A DNA stretch of 64,000 nt from a phage. Where the stretch lies: the sequence record OZ346222.1. One strand, given 5' to 3'. Below the pieces are notes generated by a model, which saw nothing but the letters and a program-made list of their open reading frames with translations, had not been told where the DNA came from and did not search any database. Positions 18,370 through 60,830 of this stretch are shown here, piece after piece; position 1 is the stretch's first letter, and the number at the start of each line of letters is the position of its first letter. Made by a program: the position numbers and the translations under genes.

Positions 18370-19851
18370 TTACTTAGCGTACTCGATTAATTCCACAGTT
18401 TTCCCAAAGCTCGGGATATAATTTTTATTATACCCCTCAGTGAGGACCCATAGAGTATCGTACTTTTTCCACTTGTTGTCAACAACCTTTTGTTCAAAGT
18501 TATGCTCAAAGTATAGGTCGGTCAGGACGATGACATCTTTTGCATTAGGTATGTTGGCATCCAGATACTCGAACACGCAAGCAGCTGTTGTGCCCCATGT
18601 TGAGTGGACCTCATAGTTGATCATCTCGTCTATGTTGCCGCGAGTGTATACTTTAACCTCTCCAACCTCAGTTGACCAACAGAACATTGTAACCTTAAAC
18701 TCTTTATACAGATTGCACAATCCGGTGATTTCATTGAACATTTTCTTTAAAGTTCTTTGAGAGATCGAGCCAGAAACGTCTAAAGCCACCACAATATCTA
18801 TAGTGTTTTCCGGATTACGACCAGGAACAATAACGTGCTGGTTCTTGTTTATAGCCCCAACTTTTCGCATTGTGCTGGTCAAAGACCCAGATCGGCGACC
18901 AGGTTTTCTGTAGGTCAGTTCGGCCTTTCTTTTAGACAACATACGTTGCTTAATGATGTCTATATAGTTGATTACAGGCTTACCTCTGTTCTTGACAAAC
19001 TCACGCACCGCCTCAGGGCAACGGCCTCCGGACGCTTGCATTGCTGCCTCCAGCATATCACCAGAGTCCTGCATGGCCTGATCTTTATCAGATTGGCTGA
19101 TTACAGGTTGTGGCTGATCATACCCCATAGCCTTTCCAAGATTATCACTGGTGCCACCGTTCCCACTCATGTGATCATCGGTTTGTCGCTTATCACTTTG
19201 AGAGTTCTCACCTTTACCGTTCTTACTTTTACCGTTATTCTGATCTCTTTGCTTATCAAGAACTGCATAAACGTTCTCAGCAATCCATCCATGAAACTTC
19301 ATGTCGCAGTAGCAGCTGGCTAAGAAGCCAAAAGGCTTACCTTTCATGAACGTAGTGCTTTTCCCCTTCGGGAAGAAAACACAAGGAGGTTTGCTAAAGT
19401 CAACCACAAGGCCTGTGTTGATAACGTGATCACAAGCAATATTGAACAGTTCCGGCTCAAAGCTTTTACCACGGACTAGGTGATCACAGATAATATGCCC
19501 CACCTCATGTGACAGAAGGAAGGCCACCTCTTTCACAGATTTTGGGGAATAGAAAACTTCAGCCATCTCAAACTGCTCGTCAGTTAGAGAAGCCTTAAGA
19601 ATAGCCTTGCGTTCATCAGCCAATCCCATAATGAACTCAGGACTGTAATAGATGCGTTTATGGTCGGTTGCCATGGTGGAGCACCATGTGTGGTTTTCTA
19701 CGAACTGCAACCCTGACAGTAGTGTGCCATAAAACGGCAGCTTTTCAAGGAGATACATACGTGCAGCCTGCAACATTCTCAGGGCATCATCTTTCTGCGA
19801 GGCAATGATTTCTGAACTTCTGCTATCCATTAAAACTCCAGAAGGGGCCAT
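18370..19851 (-). CDS. vWA-domain protein with N-terminal HExxH metallopeptidase-like domain
   Basis: 493 aa; HEVGHIICDH (HExxH) in the N-terminal half; VVALDVSGSI (DxSxS MIDAS motif) in the C-terminal half; architecture typical of VWA partners of MoxR-type ATPases. Confidence 0.65.
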   Translation of the reverse strand: MAPSGVLMDSRSSEIIASQKDDALRMLQAARMYLLEKLPFYGTLLSGLQFVENHTWCSTMATDHKRIYYSPEFIMGLADERKAILKASLTDEQFEMAEVFYSPKSVKEVAFLLSHEVGHIICDHLVRGKSFEPELFNIACDHVINTGLVVDFSKPPCVFFPKGKSTTFMKGKPFGFLASCYCDMKFHGWIAENVYAVLDKQRDQNNGKSKNGKGENSQSDKRQTDDHMSGNGGTSDNLGKAMGYDQPQPVISQSDKDQAMQDSGDMLEAAMQASGGRCPEAVREFVKNRGKPVINYIDIIKQRMLSKRKAELTYRKPGRRSGSLTSTMRKVGAINKNQHVIVPGRNPENTIDIVVALDVSGSISQRTLKKMFNEITGLCNLYKEFKVTMFCWSTEVGEVKVYTRGNIDEMINYEVHSTWGTTAACVFEYLDANIPNAKDVIVLTDLYFEHNFEQKVVDNKWKKYDTLWVLTEGYNKNYIPSFGKTVELIEYAK

Positions 19852-19863
19852 TGGCCCCTGTCA

Positions 19864-20907
19864 TTATTTAACGTGTTTGAAAATACCTGCCAACTCGGTC
19901 ATTGTCATGCGGGTGGTCTTCATAAGATCTGTCATAGCTTTCTCCATAATTGGAGATACTACCATAAAGTTTCCTTTAGTGAAACCTTTATTCCAGTCGG
20001 TCACCAACAGGGGTTTAAGTCCAGCTCCAAGACGTTCACCAGTTAAAGCACAGCATTTGCGAATATACGAACTCTTAAATTGGCTGAACGACAGATCAAC
20101 TTTCATACCTACATCGTAGAACGTTTGACAATAGAAAGTGTAAGCTTTGGCAATCTCAACATCATCAGGTAGTGCAGGAACCTCTTCTGTAAGCTCCTCT
20201 TCGACCTCCTGAGTCTCTTTTTCCTCTTCATGCACCTGTTGCGTCATTTCTTCAATCTCTTCTGTGATAGGCTCGTTTACAATGTCGGAAATGTGCTTCT
20301 TGGGTGCACGATAAGTAACTTTAGACATCGGTAGCATATCTTCCTCCTCTTCTTCGTCAAAGAGTGCTAGTTTATCCTCTTCCGTTCCATATTGCAAGAT
20401 GAAATCTTCAAAAGTATAATCACCTTTCAATTTCTCCATACGCTCTTCGCTCAGGTGGAGCATCATCTGCTGGACAATTTTTCGATCAGTTTCGTCTTTA
20501 ATCAAGACTGCAGTCTTTTTATCTACCAGACAGTCCTTTAGAGAGTTGCATCTCAATCCCACCACACAACAGTTATCAACCGCATAAGGACCTTCATCAT
20601 CTATCCGCTCCAGAGATGGGTAGAAAGGATTCCCCAGCCCGTTTTCATCTGTGTGCATGTCAAAAGGTATAAGGGTATAGTCGCATACTCCATCTCCTAA
20701 AAGTTTTTTACCAAATAGGAGATATTCTTCCCATGACAGGTCGAACTCTATATCTCGTTTCCGTGCGTTATTCTGTTTGCGTCTATATTTTTTGAGCAAG
20801 CGCTCTAACTCTTCTGGTGTATAATATTTTTCAAGATTCATGAGTCGTCTCTCGTGCTCTGTAAGTGAAGAAATCGTATCAATTGTCTCAACAGATGTCA
20901 ACATCAA
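19864..20907 (-). CDS. hypothetical protein with Glu-rich acidic central region
   Basis: 347 aa; acidic stretch (EEEKETQEVEEELTEEV); contains the PMSKVTYRA peptide shared with gene 22172..22528. Confidence 0.5.
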   Translation of the reverse strand: MMLTSVETIDTISSLTEHERRLMNLEKYYTPEELERLLKKYRRKQNNARKRDIEFDLSWEEYLLFGKKLLGDGVCDYTLIPFDMHTDENGLGNPFYPSLERIDDEGPYAVDNCCVVGLRCNSLKDCLVDKKTAVLIKDETDRKIVQQMMLHLSEERMEKLKGDYTFEDFILQYGTEEDKLALFDEEEEEDMLPMSKVTYRAPKKHISDIVNEPITEEIEEMTQQVHEEEKETQEVEEELTEEVPALPDDVEIAKAYTFYCQTFYDVGMKVDLSFSQFKSSYIRKCCALTGERLGAGLKPLLVTDWNKGFTKGNFMVVSPIMEKAMTDLMKTTRMTMTELAGIFKHVK

Positions 20908-20914
20908 AAACGTG

Positions 20915-20943
20915 TTGACTTTACTCTAACTCCACAATATAGT
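20915..20943 (+). promoter_or_regulatory. sigma70-type promoter for rightward gene block
   Basis: TTGACT-17 nt-TATAGT in the divergent intergenic region about 40 nt upstream of the 20984 start. Confidence 0.5.
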
Positions 20944-20983
20944 GCACCCATTCGAAAGAAAACTAACATAGGAGCACTTACTT

Positions 20984-21883
20984 ATGGCAAATCTTAACAG
21001 TTTTAGTACGCGGTGGAAACAGGACATAACAACCAATCTTTCAGCTGGGGACATCCTTTCTGCAATTTACGAGGCTTTAGATGATAAAGCTACTTCAAAA
21101 GCGGTTTGTACCAACCCATTAATTCCTATAGTGATGAAGGTTATTGAGCGTAGATTGGTATCTGGGTCTGATAAGTGGACATATTTAGATAATGAAGGAC
21201 ACACCTATTCCAATGGGTATGTCGATATAAAAGTAGAATACGCGGTATCATACCGCCGGAGCGGTTCTGTAACTTTCAACTTCTCTGGAGGTTTTCGATC
21301 TCTGGCTACCTCACCTTTTGTTTCCTCAGAGGAGAAGTATGAGCTGCCATTTCTTTGGATGATGGCTAACGCGACAGGAAAAACCCCCGTTAGCATCCGA
21401 GTAAAATACAACTACAACGGATCTAGTAAGATCTATGCCGAAAGTGTCTCAGCAAGTTTTTATTTTGTGATGGGGGATGGAATCCTCAAACATATAAAGA
21501 TGTGCGATATGCATGATGTTATAAATGAAGTGACTGATAAGAATGTTCTAGTGAAAGACCTCAACAATTTTTATACACCCGGAGACTATTACGTCAGCCG
21601 TCCACTGTGCATCTTTAATGCCGCACACCCTCTAGGTGAGTATTTGATCGCCAATAGCGATATTGCCAATAACCGCTTCGAGGTAGCAAGAGTTCAGAAT
21701 GAGGTATTGACATCTTGCAAGAGCGGTGATAAGTTTACCGAAGAAGAGATGGGTGTTTTAGAAATGATGGGATATAAGTGTAGCCTTTGGGTAGATGAGG
21801 TGTTCAATGATTGCATCTATGGACAGGATATTTACCCATTAAAGAAGTATACTGATTCCAGTTTAATTTACGCGGAGATTTGA
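20984..21883 (+). CDS. hypothetical protein
   Basis: 299-aa ORF, first gene of rightward block; RBS AGGAG upstream. Confidence 0.55.
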   Translation: MANLNSFSTRWKQDITTNLSAGDILSAIYEALDDKATSKAVCTNPLIPIVMKVIERRLVSGSDKWTYLDNEGHTYSNGYVDIKVEYAVSYRRSGSVTFNFSGGFRSLATSPFVSSEEKYELPFLWMMANATGKTPVSIRVKYNYNGSSKIYAESVSASFYFVMGDGILKHIKMCDMHDVINEVTDKNVLVKDLNNFYTPGDYYVSRPLCIFNAAHPLGEYLIANSDIANNRFEVARVQNEVLTSCKSGDKFTEEEMGVLEMMGYKCSLWVDEVFNDCIYGQDIYPLKKYTDSSLIYAEI

Positions 21884-22158
21884 CTATGATGAAGTCATGT
21901 GGTAGTGTATATTATGTTGGTGAGAATGTTCAGGCAGATAGTGTGTGGAAATCCATTAAGTCCACCACCGATGATGCCTTTCTGAGCGGGTTATGTTTTC
22001 CCAGCCCAGGGGACACTCTCCCTTACCCTGGAGATTTTGTTGTCAACAAGATGGACGGTTATACCGTGTGCCTGATGGTTGAAAAAATCTTTTTAGACAC
22101 TAGACACAATCACCGTCTTGTGTTAAAATTTCAAGAATGTAAAATGACAATTGCCTAA
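21880..22158 (+). CDS. hypothetical protein
   Basis: 92-aa ORF overlapping upstream stop (ATGA). Confidence 0.45.
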   Translation: MTMMKSCGSVYYVGENVQADSVWKSIKSTTDDAFLSGLCFPSPGDTLPYPGDFVVNKMDGYTVCLMVEKIFLDTRHNHRLVLKFQECKMTIA

Positions 22159-22171
22159 GGAGACCTTGCCG

Positions 22172-22528
22172 ATGTCTAAAGTTACTTATCGTGCAGCTAT
22201 TTACTGCAATGAACACCCAATCAATAATGATGGTCACTGCCTTTTTAAAGAAAATCAATTGGGCTGTATTGTCCTCCCTGATGAAGGGGAAGGTTATCTG
22301 ATTGCGTTGACAGGGTTTGAACCTGAAGCTCTGGAAGCCAATCTTGACTACCTGGTAGAGGAGGGTGCTGCAGACCTGGTTGCCAATGGCCTCTCCATAA
22401 GCCTTGACGAAGTGGAGCGCTTCATGGGCAATTACCGTGTAGTGCGTGAGTTTACTATCGAGGTGGAAACTCCCGAGTGGGGTAGCCATGAAACTAATGC
22501 CGAAGAAAAAGAAGAGGAGGTAGAATAA
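22172..22528 (+). CDS. hypothetical acidic protein
   Basis: Start taken at first ATG (track ORF begins at TTG 22151) with TAAGGAG 9 nt upstream; acidic C-terminus. Confidence 0.45.
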   Translation: MSKVTYRAAIYCNEHPINNDGHCLFKENQLGCIVLPDEGEGYLIALTGFEPEALEANLDYLVEEGAADLVANGLSISLDEVERFMGNYRVVREFTIEVETPEWGSHETNAEEKEEEVE

Positions 22529-22785
22529 TGAAAGTGCAGATCTTGACTAATGCCGAGAAGATGTTTATTGAAGATACACCTTTTGAAGCTGGTGAGCTAC
22601 AGTTCGTTTATTTTGTTGACTTAGATAAGGTGTTTCCTGCACTGAATCTAGGTTTGGATGAAGTTCCTCATAAGGTTTTGTGCCAAGTTGTTCGTGCCTT
22701 AGCGGCAGAGGGGGAGTTCCACACCCTTCAAGATATCCAGACCTACGGGTATCTTGAACTACAACGAGAAGAAGAGGTGGACTGA
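22528..22785 (+). CDS. hypothetical protein
   Basis: 85-aa ORF; ATG overlaps upstream stop. Confidence 0.5.
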   Translation: MKVQILTNAEKMFIEDTPFEAGELQFVYFVDLDKVFPALNLGLDEVPHKVLCQVVRALAAEGEFHTLQDIQTYGYLELQREEEVD

Positions 22786-33116: not shown

Positions 33117-33150
33117 GGCCCTGCCCGAAAGGGTGGGGCTTTTTGCATTA
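33117..33150 (+). terminator. rho-independent terminator (copy 1 of a duplicated terminator sequence)
   Basis: GCCCTGCCC-GAAA-GGGTGGGGC hairpin plus TTTTTG; identical hairpin recurs at about 43512. Confidence 0.55.
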
Positions 33151-43510: not shown

Positions 43511-43545
43511 ACATAGCCCTGCCCGAAAGGGTGGGGCATTTTTAT
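43511..43545 (+). terminator. rho-independent terminator (copy 2 of duplicated terminator sequence)
   Basis: GCCCTGCCC-GAAA-GGGTGGGGC hairpin plus ATTTTTAT; same hairpin as at about 33117. Confidence 0.55.
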
Positions 43546-47042: not shown

Positions 47043-47355
47043 TACTTGAAAATCCCTGGCATATCAAGTGTAAGGAGGATTTCTAAAATGGATTTCCTCC
47101 TTTTGATATTTCACCGGGCCAGATATTTTAAAATTCTTAGAAAATCAGAAAATGGATCGAAAACTAAAATGGATTTTTCAAGACAGGCACGATAAGATGT
47201 GCTGCTCATTCTATCGTTCGCACCGTACTTTAAGTCACTATTCCAGATTTTTCCGCACATACTCTCACCCTTCTACCAGAACTTTCCCAGCTTACCTCTG
47301 ACCTTTTATAACAATAAGTCCATTATTATCAGAAAGTTTCGGCACATCTCTTTCG

Positions 47356-47550
47356 GTACTCGATCTGTTTTTCATTTCAAAGACCTGATTTTCTGAAAAT
47401 TTTTCTCGATAAATTTCTTAGTACTCGATCTGTTTTTCATTTCAAAGACCTGATTTTCTGAAAATTTTTCTCGATAAATTTCTTAGTACTCGATCTGTTT
47501 TTCGTTTTCTGAATCGGATTTTCTGGAAATCGTTCCAGCTCTCGACCTGA
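47356..47550. repeat. tandem direct repeat, 65-bp unit, about 3 copies (third degenerate)
   Basis: Unit GTACTCGATCTGTTTTTCATTTCAAAGACCTGATTTTCTGAAAATTTTTCTCGATAAATTTCTTA starts at about 47356, 47421 and 47486 in an ORF-poor AT-rich region; AAATGGAT and GATTTTCTG sub-motifs recur on both sides. Confidence 0.7.
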
Positions 47551-47744
47551 AATTTTTGGGGACGAAATCGATTTTTCGTTTTCAGAAATGGATTTTTAAA
47601 ATTTCTATATGGGAATATTTTATGGGATACTGTTTTATAGGAAATTGTTACGGAGGGTAATTAGCATGCTAATTAAATTTATTAAATGCGAGGAGTTCTC
47701 ATTTAGAATTTTGAATGATAATCATTCTCGTTTGCAGAATAACG

Positions 47745-49121: not shown

Positions 49122-49526
49122 ATGAATAAGAACGTACGCCGCATCATGAACGAACTGGCAAACGATGAAAAAATTATTGACATGCATTTGATCAACATTT
49201 GCCGCCGTTGTGTAACATACAACAACCGCGCCGCAAAAGCGCGTGAGATGAACGCAAAAGGCACCTTAAAGCCATTCCAGGTGGTGGTAAAGGCCATTAA
49301 AGATGTAACTAATACGGCAAACCAGGTACAGGGGAACACCAACGAGAGTACCAATATTGATCCGGCTTACATCATGAAACGGATCCGGACCTGCAAGAAC
49401 AAAGAGCAAGTGTATAATGTCATAGACTGGTTGGATTCTATGGGCGATGTGGTGTACAATAGATTCTCGGCAGCTATTGAGATCCAGCTTGACAGGTTAG
49501 ACGGTAAAGTACTTAAAACTTACTAA
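49122..49526 (+). CDS. hypothetical protein
   Basis: 134 aa; promoter TTGACA...TAAACT, leader hairpin GGCGGGAA-TGT-TTCCCGCC, CA-rich spacer, RBS. Confidence 0.55.
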   Translation: MNKNVRRIMNELANDEKIIDMHLINICRRCVTYNNRAAKAREMNAKGTLKPFQVVVKAIKDVTNTANQVQGNTNESTNIDPAYIMKRIRTCKNKEQVYNVIDWLDSMGDVVYNRFSAAIEIQLDRLDGKVLKTY

Positions 49527-49537
49527 ATTTATTTTTA

Positions 49538-49561
49538 GATGGCCTTGACTCCAGGGCCATC
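49538..49561. promoter_or_regulatory. dyad-symmetric element GATGGCC-N10-GGCCATC with TTGACT in the spacer (copy 1 of 3)
   Basis: Part of a roughly 44-nt block TTATTTTTAGATGGCCTTGACTCCAGGGCCATCAATAAAGTAAA repeated at about 50159 and 53897, each directly after a gene stop. Confidence 0.5.
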
Positions 49562-49726
49562 AATAAAGTAAATTAATCTCAGCTAAGCGAAAAAGGGGGC
49601 TTTAAGATGAGCACTACACGCCAATACACAAAGGTAACTATTATCGCCTGCGTTGTCGGTTACATCCTGGCGCAAATGTTAATGAGTAGCGCTAACAGTT
49701 TTGCAAAATTTTTCTTAAATTTTTAA

Positions 49727-49805: not shown

Positions 49806-50147
49806 ATGACTACTATGGCCGCCGCAGAAAAAGCTATTCAGATCGCCGCACTGAAAAAACAGATCGCAGACCTTGAGAACAAGATCGATAACTTTGAAAT
49901 CGACGAGGACAAGTACGACGAAAACTATGATGAATGGTTAGACGAGATCTACGGCGAAATTATGATCGGAAACATTTCTTTTCTTCCGTCGCGTATCCTC
50001 AAGGAGCTAGATCCTATCGCTTACCGCTGCGGATTTAGCGACTACATCGACAGCCTGGATATTGAGGACGATGAAGAATACCAGGAATTACAGACAGAGT
50101 TAGAAGAAGCAAAAGAAGAGCTTGCAGAACTGGAAGAAAACGAGTAA
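49806..50147 (+). CDS. highly acidic coiled-coil protein
   Basis: 113 aa, strongly Asp/Glu-rich; RBS AAAGGAGAAA. Confidence 0.55.
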   Translation: MTTMAAAEKAIQIAALKKQIADLENKIDNFEIDEDKYDENYDEWLDEIYGEIMIGNISFLPSRILKELDPIAYRCGFSDYIDSLDIEDDEEYQELQTELEEAKEELAELEENE

Positions 50148-50158
50148 GATTATTTTTA

Positions 50159-50182
50159 GATGGCCTTGACTCCAGGGCCATC
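50159..50182. promoter_or_regulatory. dyad-symmetric element GATGGCC-N10-GGCCATC (copy 2 of 3)
   Basis: Identical to copy 1 including flanks. Confidence 0.5.
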
Positions 50183-50236
50183 AATAAAGTAAACTTTATA
50201 CTGTTAACACTGAACTAATGCATAGGAGTTAAAACC

Positions 50237-50482
50237 ATGGCAGCACTAATCACCAAATATTATGCCCCTACCAACACCAAAAGCGCCCGTATCATGGTAA
50301 AAGGCTTCGGACGTAAAAAGGTGTACACCTGGGATTATGCCTTAGACACGGAAGACAACTACACCAACGCGATGACCGATTTTATTAATGATCTGAACAC
50401 GCGGATCTTGACAAATTATAAAATTACCGATATTGCCTATATAGGGGAAGGCGGGATCTGTTTTGTCGGTATCGTCAAATAA
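50237..50482 (+). CDS. small hypothetical protein
   Basis: 81 aa; RBS TAGGAG. Confidence 0.5.
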   Translation: MAALITKYYAPTNTKSARIMVKGFGRKKVYTWDYALDTEDNYTNAMTDFINDLNTRILTNYKITDIAYIGEGGICFVGIVK

Positions 50483-50557
50483 GCTGTTTTTTCGGTGGTC
50501 CTGGTAGCAGGGCCATCTATAAAGATAGTTTATCAATACAATGAAAGGAGAAAGTAC

Positions 50558-53683: not shown

Positions 53684-53884
53684 ATGAGCAACAATATCCG
53701 CGTTATTAACTTCAAAAAAGAAGAAAAAATTGCCGTGCTGATTGACGGTCAAGAAATCTTCAAGGGCGACTATGAAGATCATCAAACGGCGATTAGTATC
53801 ACTCGCGTGATTGGTTATCATAATTTCTACCCCCAAGGCGCTGAGGCAGCAGTTAAACGAATCAAAGAGATTGTAGGCCTGTAA
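53684..53884 (+). CDS. small hypothetical protein
   Basis: 66 aa; promoter TTGCAA-17-ATAATA, hairpin GGGGA-GCTAA-TCCCC, CA-rich spacer ACCACCACAAAAACC, RBS AAAGGAGAAA. Confidence 0.55.
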   Translation: MSNNIRVINFKKEEKIAVLIDGQEIFKGDYEDHQTAISITRVIGYHNFYPQGAEAAVKRIKEIVGL

Positions 53885-53896
53885 AATTTATTTTTA

Positions 53897-53920
53897 GATG
53901 GCCTTGACTTCAGGGCCATC
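53897..53920. promoter_or_regulatory. dyad-symmetric element GATGGCC-N10-GGCCATC (copy 3 of 3)
   Basis: Two substitutions relative to copies 1-2 (TTGACTTCAG, CGATAAAG); directly after the 53684..53884 stop. Confidence 0.5.
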
Positions 53921-53977
53921 GATAAAGTAAATTTAAACCCTGTTAAAATACCACGCAGTTAACAAGGAGTGATAGAC

Positions 53978-59299: not shown

Positions 59300-60830
59300 G
59301 TCAACATTTTTCGTAAACAGTCTGAAATTGTCACTGTGAGTTATCATAAACAGAGAAATCTTTAGTCGTATAATGTTTACTGTACGTTACTATACTGACT
59401 GGAATCATTAGATGACTAATAGAAAGATAAGAAATAATTAACAATACAATTATTTTACCTGTAACAATAAGACAACTATGCAAACGAATGGCATGGCGCG
59501 ACGGAGTCGCGACATAATATAAAAGCAGTAACCATCACCCCCGTGATGGTTTGTCTGCAATCTATTAATCAGATCATAGTTGCCTTGTATTCAGTTAATC
59601 ATGACATAATAAGCAAGGCAACTATAGATCTGCTAATAGTTGCCCTGCTTTTATATTATGTCATATATTATTAACTTGTTAATTGTTAACTTGCTAATTG
59701 TTTTCATGCAAACGAATGTCATGGCTTATCCTATCTGTGTAAACAGTTAAGGTGTAAACTATCCAGGCGTAAACAGTCTATGCGGGAACAATCTATACGT
59801 GAACAGTGAAACATGAAATAATAACAGTCGTTATTGTGTCGAAAGTGTATAAGGTGTCAGACAAGTTTTTCTCCTCTTTGTCAAGTGCTGCATGAAAAAT
59901 TTACAAGCTTGTATGGTAGCATTTTTGCGGCCCTGTTTACATTCAGCGATGTATGTATAATCCTTGTTGTGTGGGCGTTTAGACGTCTAGACGGTCAGAA
60001 GTCTGCAGGTTAATACCTAATCTATCGGCTGCTAACTATATCCCACACAAATAGTAAGAAATATAATTGTTATGTGCGTAAACAGTAACTCATGTTATCA
60101 ATCCCTGTATGTATCGCCAGTGGTGCGCATAATGGGTATTATGTTAAATTGCCCGTAATGATAACTATTCTCACAATGATAGGTATTCTCATTCACTCCC
60201 ACAAGATAGGTTGCAAATGTTGTGCCACTGTGTGAACGGCCTAACCTATTAATTTGCCTCACTGCCTCGATATTTGAGAATTGTTATAAGAATGAGAAGT
60301 ATTCCCATTTCGTCCGCCTGGCAGCACTCCAGTCGCTACCGCTCATGACAGGGCAGAACTAGACCCTCTTCAGATATTTCTGGCTGACTCTTCAGGTCTG
60401 TGTGGGAAAAGCCAACCTCTCCGGCGGCGGGGAGGGGGTCAATTAAAAAAAATTACGTGGTGCATGAAGCGCTCTTCAGGTAAGGCATGTGTTATGGGAT
60501 GAAACCCTCTTCAGGCAATGATATTTGTGGGTGTGATATTTGCTGGAAAGCCAGATATGACGGGACTCCTGGCGGGGCAGGGGTAGTACAGACAGGGAAA
60601 ATATGGGGGATGTAGTTGGGGAAATTGATCAGACAGGTAGAGTATGGAATATGTTACAAGTATGTTAAATAGGGAGGATGAATATCTGCAGGATTTGTGT
60701 GTAAAATCAAAGACTTAAGTGGTGTTGTGGTATTTTCTATAAATAATTCAAGTTTAATAGGTAATATTTGTCTCTATCCACTTTGTGTGGTAAACAGATT
60801 CAGATGAAATTGGTTTACAAGTGTATACAT
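59300..60830. repeat. iteron-like dispersed repeats (GTAAACAG family) and palindromes in an ORF-free region
   Basis: At least 7 copies of (G)TAAACAG in both orientations, five within about 90 bp near 59.74-59.83 kb; 12-bp inverted repeat ATAGTTGCCTTG/CAAGGCAACTAT near 59.58-59.62 kb; TGCAAACGAATG(G/T)CATGGC twice. Confidence 0.55.

Follow-up and report, generated by a model that had tools for sequence, protein, structure and literature searches.

The 64,000-nucleotide stretch of DNA analyzed here (sequence record OZ346222.1; hereafter the window) comes from a Vequintavirus, or rV5-like, phage, and the locus in question consists of two divergently transcribed genes and the region between them. 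The minus-strand gene encodes two conserved domains, N-terminal and C-terminal, joined by a hypervariable acidic linker, a layout defined by alignment with Seunavirus, Mydovirus and Avunavirus homologues, in which linker length ranges from about 20 to 90 aa across genera. PHROGs places this gene in phrog_3118 ("HNH endonuclease"), a weaker resemblance links it to the T4 Srd and endonuclease VII families, and in GenBank its product is named an anti-sigma factor, an HNH endonuclease or an anti-termination protein. An earlier, sequence-only reading of the window had placed the start of the gene at TTG 20907, but most GenBank records use ATG 20841, giving a protein of 325 aa. The plus-strand gene was found in Vequintavirus only. 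Pfam and PDB sequence searches returned no match for either gene, and the family assignments come from PHROGs only. The features of the locus, with donor and recipient named according to the interpretation developed below, are:

19864 to 20841, minus strand: putative recipient gene, 325 aa, two conserved domains joined by the acidic linker
20111 to 20349, minus strand: linker haplotype block, containing all 12 of the substitutions that are private to the repeat-bearing allele
20305 to 20331, minus strand: left arm of the repeat, probably the derived, recipient copy, codons 171-179 (PMSKVTYRA) of the 325-aa product
20305 to 20310 and 20326 to 20331, read on the plus strand: left-arm anchors TGCACG and CATCGG
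20311 to 20325: 15-nt interior of the left arm, probably copied
20335 to 20349, minus strand: GAGGAGG and, 5 nt later, the ATG of M169, a putative internal start read from the sequence
20873 to 20943, both strands: divergent promoter-like region from a consensus scan, between the gene blocks and inside the segment bounded by the arms
22169 to 22195, plus strand: right arm of the repeat, probably the donor, -3 to +24 around ATG 22172 of the 118-aa gene
22169 to 22174 and 22190 to 22195, plus strand: right-arm anchors CCGATG and CGTGCA
22172 to 22528, plus strand: putative donor gene, 118 aa, phrog_12908 (PHROGs), with the ribosome-binding site AAGGAG at 22157-22162

The 27-bp exact inverted repeat described as shared by the two genes was borne out: the window contains exactly two copies of CCGATGTCTAAAGTTACTTATCGTGCA, one at 22169-22195 on the plus strand and one, as the reverse complement, at 20305-20331 on the minus strand. 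No further copies with up to 3 mismatches were found within the window, dinucleotide-preserving shuffles yielded no matches (0/100), so that none are expected by chance, and no longer perfect inverted repeat was found in the 64 kb. The arms are 1837 nt apart, and comparison of their flanks revealed no similarity beyond the 27 nt. In Murica and inoa the identity of the arms reaches 29 nt (29/29, TACCGATG...), while in the window the right arm has a G polymorphism that shortens it to 27 nt. The two copies are each in frame, and the peptide attributed to both genes, PMSKVTYRA, is indeed common to them over the 8 aa MSKVTYRA; the proline is probably untranslated in the plus-strand gene, since its CCG falls between AAGGAG (22157-22162) and the ATG. 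The repeat had also been described as flanking a divergent promoter region, which is literally correct, the promoter-like sites at 20873-20943 (TTGACT-17-TATAGT on the plus strand and TTGACA-17-TACGAT on the minus strand, from the consensus scan only) lying between the arms but separated from them by 0.6 and 1.2 kb.

Comparison with related phages, which had been suggested from the sequence alone, proved informative. Fuzzy matching of the left-arm context with substitutions only, which is blind to indel alleles, recovered Murica only; alleles were compared across relatives by MAFFT alignment, which handles indels. Of 118 phage records, only 28, among them Murica and PMBT16, contained the left arm, and 90, rV5 and MaxBurger included, carried a version that is 12 nt longer, PMQDFKNFMADRA. 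Over the 131-nt left-arm region 27 records were 100% identical, one was 97.7% identical, and the 90 were 60-80% identical. Arm copies occurred at 144 places in 116 records, with two copies in 28 records and three in none, and the right arm was kept in all relatives sampled (116-117 records). A scan of IMG/VR for intermediates returned two contigs only, both with the long allele. The sequence-only reading had counted relatives without the repeat as evidence against itself, and because 90 of the 118 records are of this kind a conserved function of the repeat fails.

We consider it improbable that the shared sequence is nonetheless under selection, as a peptide motif (MSKVTYRA) or mRNA operator needed by both genes. 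The 131-nt allele is unchanged in its 27 records despite differences of up to 5% in the surrounding 2.8-4.5 kb, and among phages that carry the repeat, diversity within the gene is lowest in the linker (0.014, versus 0.034-0.053 for the domains flanking it), as a sweep could produce. This low diversity could hint at selection, and it also fits a young allele moved by recombination; a young neutral allele spread in this way gives the same pattern in phages as highly mosaic as these. Heavy mosaicism was evident in sliding distances, where the private differences fell in the linker. They did not mark a junction between modules at the arm, and a mosaic boundary at the repeat, for which the earlier reading had suggested looking, was rejected. 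Three quarters of the related phages do without the shared sequence in the minus-strand gene, the right arm accepts a V-to-A replacement (slur16 and bov10K2) and synonymous changes (FV3), and ECP32 has an altered left arm. The copied stretch excludes the ribosome-binding site, and no family or motif match was found for either protein region.

It is very unlikely that the repeat marks an internal translation start, as had also been proposed, from which the C-terminal domain would be made separately beginning at the Met of PMSKV. That Met, M172, follows the acidic run, encoded by the Shine-Dalgarno-like GAGGAGG. This is the nearest such run, but at 14 nt from M172 it falls outside the 5-10 nt expected between such a site and a start codon; the well-spaced ATG is that of M169, which lies outside the arm. 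M169, M172 and the purine-rich run are also present in phages without the repeat, the M169 site occurring in both allele types and M172 in all 90 repeat-less records (PMQDF...), so the repeat neither creates nor marks a start. Our literature search found no ribosome-profiling or N-terminomics paper on Vequintavirus.

The composition of the two alleles points instead to a copying event. Long alleles match the donor only at CCRATG and CGTGCA; in JES2013 and V5 the long allele has exact CCGATG and CGTGCA, both as in the donor, and the shared anchor becomes ACCGATG when the commoner donor variant is taken. Between these anchors, alignment of the old and new interiors scored no better than shuffles (p = 0.35), by which a pre-existing extended similarity was rejected, and since the interiors are alike only at chance level we infer one wholesale replacement and not gradual divergence. 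The short-allele interior, unlike that of the long allele, has a template in the window, where no template for the long-allele interior was found with up to 3 mismatches.

We think it likely that the left arm is a derived, non-reciprocal, microhomology-anchored templated copy of the right arm. An ancestor of roughly a quarter of the sequenced Vequintavirus would have carried a linker of the form CCGATG-(27 nt, QDFKNFMAD)-CGTGCA. By way of CCGATG, probably as ACCGATG, a nascent strand may have annealed to the same hexamer on the other strand, where the 118-aa gene begins 1.84 kb away; 15 nt (TCTAAAGTTACTTAT) would have been copied there before the strand rejoined its own template through CGTGCA. 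This would have exchanged 27 nt for 15 nt, nine codons for five, shortening the linker by 12 nt without loss of frame, and a quasi-repeat of 6+6 nt would have become a perfect inverted repeat of 27-29 nt. Because the two genes run in opposite directions and the anchors already shared a frame, the copy specifies the same peptide, and the in-frame patch would have been tolerated, presumably as a neutral change, owing to its location in a fast-evolving, indel-tolerant acidic linker. As to enzymology, either a replication template switch or recombination-primed short-patch ectopic conversion could have been responsible. The earlier idea of domain shuffling survives to the extent that sequence probably passed between the two genes, but what passed was a 15-nt interior between two 6-nt anchors in a disordered linker.

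Several observations are those expected of a template switch. The derived cluster is the reverse complement of another site on the same molecule (27/27 in the window, 29/29 in Murica and inoa), a state without the cluster exists in the 90 long-allele records, its polarity being probable but not strictly proven, and both switch points show microhomology. The repeat-bearing genomes examined (the window, Murica and inoa) have the same right arm as non-bearing genomes, indicating that the transfer was non-reciprocal. Concerted evolution of the arms was rejected, as those of ECP32 do not co-vary (CCTATG left, TCAATG right) and right-arm variants occur in FV3 and slur16.

The opposite polarity, in which the repeat was ancestral to Vequintavirus and was lost elsewhere when the interior was replaced, seems distinctly unlikely to us. 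With distances of 0.124-0.136, the three linker types lie about equally far from one another; the tree therefore gives no strict polarity, and this near-star permits a root on the repeat-bearing branch. Such a history would require some source for the 27-nt QDFKNFMAD interior, for which the window holds none, and the long allele is common to two linker types separated by 12.6% divergence and two indels. The left arm, moreover, is identical to the right arm at 27-29 of 29 positions although the surrounding linker has accumulated 12 private changes. Outgroup linkers, at 37-40% protein identity and barely alignable, bear a weak, loose resemblance to the long allele (Mydo DMKEHMAK, 4MG EDFPRH).

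One feature of the linker counts against the templated copy. Six of the 12 private substitutions lie within 18 nt of the arm edges (clustering p about 0.009), and no template for these was found in the donor or elsewhere in the window; half of the private changes are thus unexplained by the copy. A second donor for the flanking CTA change (the repeat pair 498-516 and 20323-20341) was considered and rejected: the longest exact matches over each private substitution, 9-12 nt, are within the distribution of 400 random control sites, and a multi-template event was therefore rejected.

An in-frame inverted repeat also invites comparison with invertible DNA switches. Here the arms would recombine and the 1.84-kb segment would invert, fusing the Srd/HNH-like N-terminal domain to the body of the 118-aa protein and leaving the C-terminal domain to be expressed alone; the junctions expected are the N-terminal domain joined to ...RAAIYCNE and AAGGAGACCTTRCCGATG...RAPKKH. 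Both inversion products are open frames (317 and 162 codons), both promoter-like sites lie inside the segment, such that the downstream operons would presumably stay transcribed, and for some phage recombination systems arms of 27-29 bp suffice. Nevertheless, we regard such a switch as extremely unlikely. All 115-116 full-length matches, including every repeat-bearing record listed, were single collinear pieces in one orientation, the left site is missing from 90 of the 118 relatives, and in ECP32 the arms drift independently. Pfam revealed no resolvase or integrase domain among 16 neighboring proteins, and no recombinase, serine or tyrosine, is annotated within 10 kb in PMBT16. It is just as hard to credit that the accidental in-frame repeat, with both promoters inside the segment it bounds, gives rise by homologous recombination to a viable inverted minority isoform; if it did, the locus would be a "shufflon" at its birth, incipient and recombinase-free, and the low diversity of this allele on diverged backgrounds would reflect selection for the allele. 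The known invertible systems (Gin/gix of Mu, Cin/cix of P1, Hin/hix and the Rci shufflon) resemble this locus in having short in-frame inverted repeats in coding sequences and in swapping protein C-termini upon inversion, as inversion would here. Unlike them, the locus has no detected recombinase, no second orientation, a repeat that is not conserved and arms that are not maintained.

Most probably, then, the exact 27-base repeat is a scar left by mutation in a single sub-lineage of the rV5-like coliphages, and nothing we found suggests a present function for it. The templated copy reveals no new biological system; the kind of mutation is already known, and the event works like a template switch, yet it is no textbook quasipalindrome, with a donor-recipient distance, 1.84 kb, that is unusually long. 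It would represent a naturally fixed, clean one-step templated mutation in a phage, from a donor gene 1.8 kb away and with anchors of 6-7 bases. More broadly, a cluster of differences in a phage alignment may stem from a single event and should not be tallied as many substitutions or taken for positive selection, and an exact short repeat common to two genes is not necessarily a regulatory or recombination site.

The conversion of imperfect into perfect inverted repeats by template switching was first seen in yeast CYC1 and phage T4 rIIB (Ripley, 1982; PMC7202029), and template-switch mutations in coding DNA can replace multiple residues (PMC8604942). The events described under the Ripley model, at the natural thyA hotspot of E. 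coli, in lacZ reporters and in yeast and great-ape surveys, share with this locus one-step perfecting and a substitution cluster plus indel produced by reverse-complement copying (PMC7202029, PMC8604942, PMC7954356), as well as microhomology at both switch points, an unchanged donor and the replacement of adjacent residues. They differ in spacing, being mostly confined to spacers of tens of nucleotides in one hairpin element, and the survey of yeast coding DNA took only spacers of 70 nt or less (PMC8604942), whereas here two genes are involved and the spacer is 1837 nt. As this is far above typical quasipalindrome spacers, a simple hairpin fold-back is unlikely, and a switch across a fork or a recombination intermediate would be needed.

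Events of the FoSTeS/MMBIR type can leave extra point changes near their junctions. In these, as here, identity of a few bases guides the switch, and microhomology-mediated switches need no closeness in the linear sequence (PMC7954356). They are usually large rearrangements, in contrast to a 15-nt patch with immediate return to the original template.

Phage T4 offers a parallel, as a lytic phage with recombination-dependent replication in which complex mutations are templated by partly similar sequence elsewhere. Schultz and Drake (2008, cited in PMC8604942) reportedly described templated mutagenesis in T4 from imperfect direct or inverted repeats. Those T4 cases are laboratory reporter-gene mutants, whereas the allele described here is a fixed natural one, carried by 28 sequenced phages. 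The locus is probably a natural example of long-range switching, and a reporter modeled on it could be built in a tractable coliphage.

The 27-mer CCGATGTCTAAAGTTACTTATCGTGCA is a real and non-random repeat, present in two exact copies on opposite strands of two divergently transcribed genes, as the sequence-only reading had reported. No additional copies at up to three mismatches were found in the window, the 27-mer appeared in 0 of 100 dinucleotide-preserving shuffles, and the pair exceeds every other perfect inverted repeat of the 64-kb window in length. Its arms are 1837 nt apart, with no similarity past the edges of either arm when their flanks were compared. The features of the locus are:

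20305-20331, minus strand: left arm, codons 171-179 (PMSKVTYRA) of the minus-strand gene
20335-20349, minus strand: GAGGAGG, then the ATG of M169 5 nt downstream, in the Srd/HNH-like (minus-strand) gene just before its C-terminal half
22157-22162, plus strand: ribosome-binding site AAGGAG of the 118-aa gene
22169-22195, plus strand: right arm, -3 to +24 about the ATG (22172) of the 118-aa gene

PMSKVTYRA had been assigned to both genes, which holds for the minus-strand gene; in the 118-aa gene the CCG is probably untranslated, because the arm starts at -3 and AAGGAG and the ATG define the gene start. The minus-strand gene, previously placed at 19864..20907, starts at 20841 in most records.

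The phage is a Vequintavirus (rV5-like) coliphage with 99.6-99.9% identity to PMBT16 and A51.2, and the locus is 91-99.9% identical in about 118 related records. Sixteen MG0656xx records carry a Campylobacter phage label, 15 of them with C. jejuni given as host, and over this locus they share 92-99% identity with E. coli Vequintavirus phages; A147 (MG065644.1), the only one of them retrieved, is flagged UNVERIFIED, and the host label looks doubtful. The 118-aa gene belongs to phrog_12908, was found in Vequintavirus only, and its protein alignment starts at residue 1 in all records listed. The minus-strand gene had no Pfam match or PDB sequence match; it falls in phrog_3118 ("HNH endonuclease"), with weaker matches to the T4 Srd and endonuclease VII families, hence its inconsistent GenBank names (at 19864-20841: anti-sigma factor, HNH endonuclease or anti-termination protein). 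According to Qi et al. 2015 (cited in PMC4980113), T4 Srd stimulates RNase E. Alignment with Seunavirus, Mydovirus and Avunavirus homologues (37-40% identity) indicated two conserved domains joined by a barely alignable acidic linker, about 20 to 90 residues long across genera, and the left arm sits inside this linker. Public annotation is also inconsistent at 18370-19851, a DUF2201 metallopeptidase/VWA-like gene labelled "HNH endonuclease" in RefSeq, and at 20984-21883, a 299-aa "alpha 1-3 fucosyltransferase" without Pfam support.

Other repeats were also present in the window. A 65-nt tandem repeat at 47346-47596 (two perfect copies at 47356-47485, a third 68% identical), accompanied by a related 47-nt family, could be iteron-like or regulatory. 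A dispersed 50-nt element in a block of small genes (49525-49574, 50146-50195, 50481-50530 and 53884-53933; 68-96% identical to the reference copy) carries the hairpin GATGGCCTTGACTCCAGGGCCATC with A/T-rich flanks and might serve as a recurring terminator or promoter cassette. Nearly identical GC-rich hairpins followed by a T run (GCCCTGCCCGAAAGGGTGGGGCTTTTT) at 33118-33144 and 43516-43542 look like terminators. A perfect 18-nt inverted repeat lies at 59511-59528 and 59645-59662 (116 nt between arms), and direct repeats at 3792-3853/5850-5911 and 3312-3337/5385-5410 (84-88% identical, spaced about 2.06 kb) suggest two paralogous genes or domains close to the window's beginning.

Comparison with related phages, the check that had been proposed, yields an allele distribution that decides how the repeat should be read. 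The right arm is kept in all relatives examined, with at most a few substitutions, and the left arm is found in 28 of 118 records: a 131-nt left-arm query matched 27 at 100% identity, ECP32 at 97.7% and 90 at 60-80%. An independent 39-nt right-arm query hit 144 places in 116 records, which corresponds to two copies in exactly 28 records and three copies in none. The other 90 records carry a long allele, CCRATG-CAGGAYTTTAAAAAYTTCATGGCTRAY-CGTGSA (PMQDFKNFMA[DN]R[AG]), which is 12 nt longer than the repeat-bearing allele and has only the terminal hexamers in common with the 118-aa gene; both hexamers are exact in the long alleles of JES2013 and V5. The long and short interiors resemble each other at the level of shuffled sequence (p = 0.35), and no template for the long interior was found in the window. 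Arm identity is 29 nt in Murica and inoa; in the window, a polymorphic G on the upstream side of the right arm cuts it to 27 nt. The repeat is most plausibly the trace of one in-frame templated copying event, carried by a minority lineage, in which the start of the 118-aa gene (donor) would have been copied into the linker of its neighbour.

A maintained or functional repeat would be an alternative. The arms drift independently: in ECP32 the left arm reads CCTATG and the right one TCAATG, and the right arm varies in FV3 (two synonymous changes) and in slur16 and bov10K2 (V to A). The right arm is under coding constraint alone. No inverted isoform was seen, all 115-116 full-length matches being single collinear pieces, and there was no resolvase/integrase domain in 16 neighbouring proteins and none annotated within 10 kb. 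A hypothetical inversion would leave two open frames because the arms share frame, and this is thus no evidence of use. The two mRNAs would carry the same, not complementary, sequence, and as the genes are divergent no ordinary transcript would contain both arms. The suggestion that the repeat marks an internal start did not hold up: M172 occurs in both allele types, 14 nt from GAGGAGG, and M169, also in both, is better spaced and lies outside the arm; from this M169 start the C-terminal domain could be made separately. These comparisons offer no evidence of a present function.

The three linker types lie at equal distances from one another (0.124-0.136), so polarity rests on donor logic, the hexamer anchors, the untemplated long allele and a weak outgroup likeness rather than on a rooted tree. 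The repeat-bearing haplotype has 12 private substitutions, every one of them in the linker (20111-20349), and six sit no more than 18 nt from an arm edge (binomial p about 0.009); in long-allele phages, 5 of 36 arm-flank sites are polymorphic versus 48 of 176 in the rest of the linker. No template for the private changes was found in the donor or elsewhere in the window, and those near the arms possibly reflect error-prone synthesis at switch junctions or later compensatory changes. Among phages with the repeat, diversity within the gene is lowest in the linker (0.014 versus 0.034-0.053). Within this strongly mosaic locus (19800-22600), MaxBurger is identical to the window at 20850-22500 and 15-25% different in the linker (20100-20400), and the repeat-bearing block occurs on backgrounds 5-13% different in adjoining bins (ECP32 and inoa compared). 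Low diversity and mosaicism are consistent with a recently arisen allele carried between phages by recombination, though selection may also lie behind the low diversity.

The donor is unaltered and the recipient altered, with microhomology at both ends, and the reverse complement of a second site accounts for the whole substitution block and the 12-nt deletion; the pattern therefore fits templated mutation by template switching, a documented class. The arm spacing of 1.84 kb makes simple hairpin fold-back unlikely. We infer either that, at the fork, the nascent strand changed template to the other parental strand or the other nascent strand, the arms being roughly one Okazaki fragment apart, or that a recombination-primed short patch was copied, possibly between co-infecting genomes, with neither preferred. 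Microhomology-guided switches do not require linear proximity (PMC7954356), and template switching in coding DNA can replace several adjacent residues (PMC8604942). In the Ripley model it converts imperfect inverted repeats to perfect ones (PMC7202029), and the Vequintavirus recipient would likewise have gained a perfect inverted repeat with its donor. The locus is a newly seen natural case of an already known mutational process, one whose donor and recipient lie unusually far apart.
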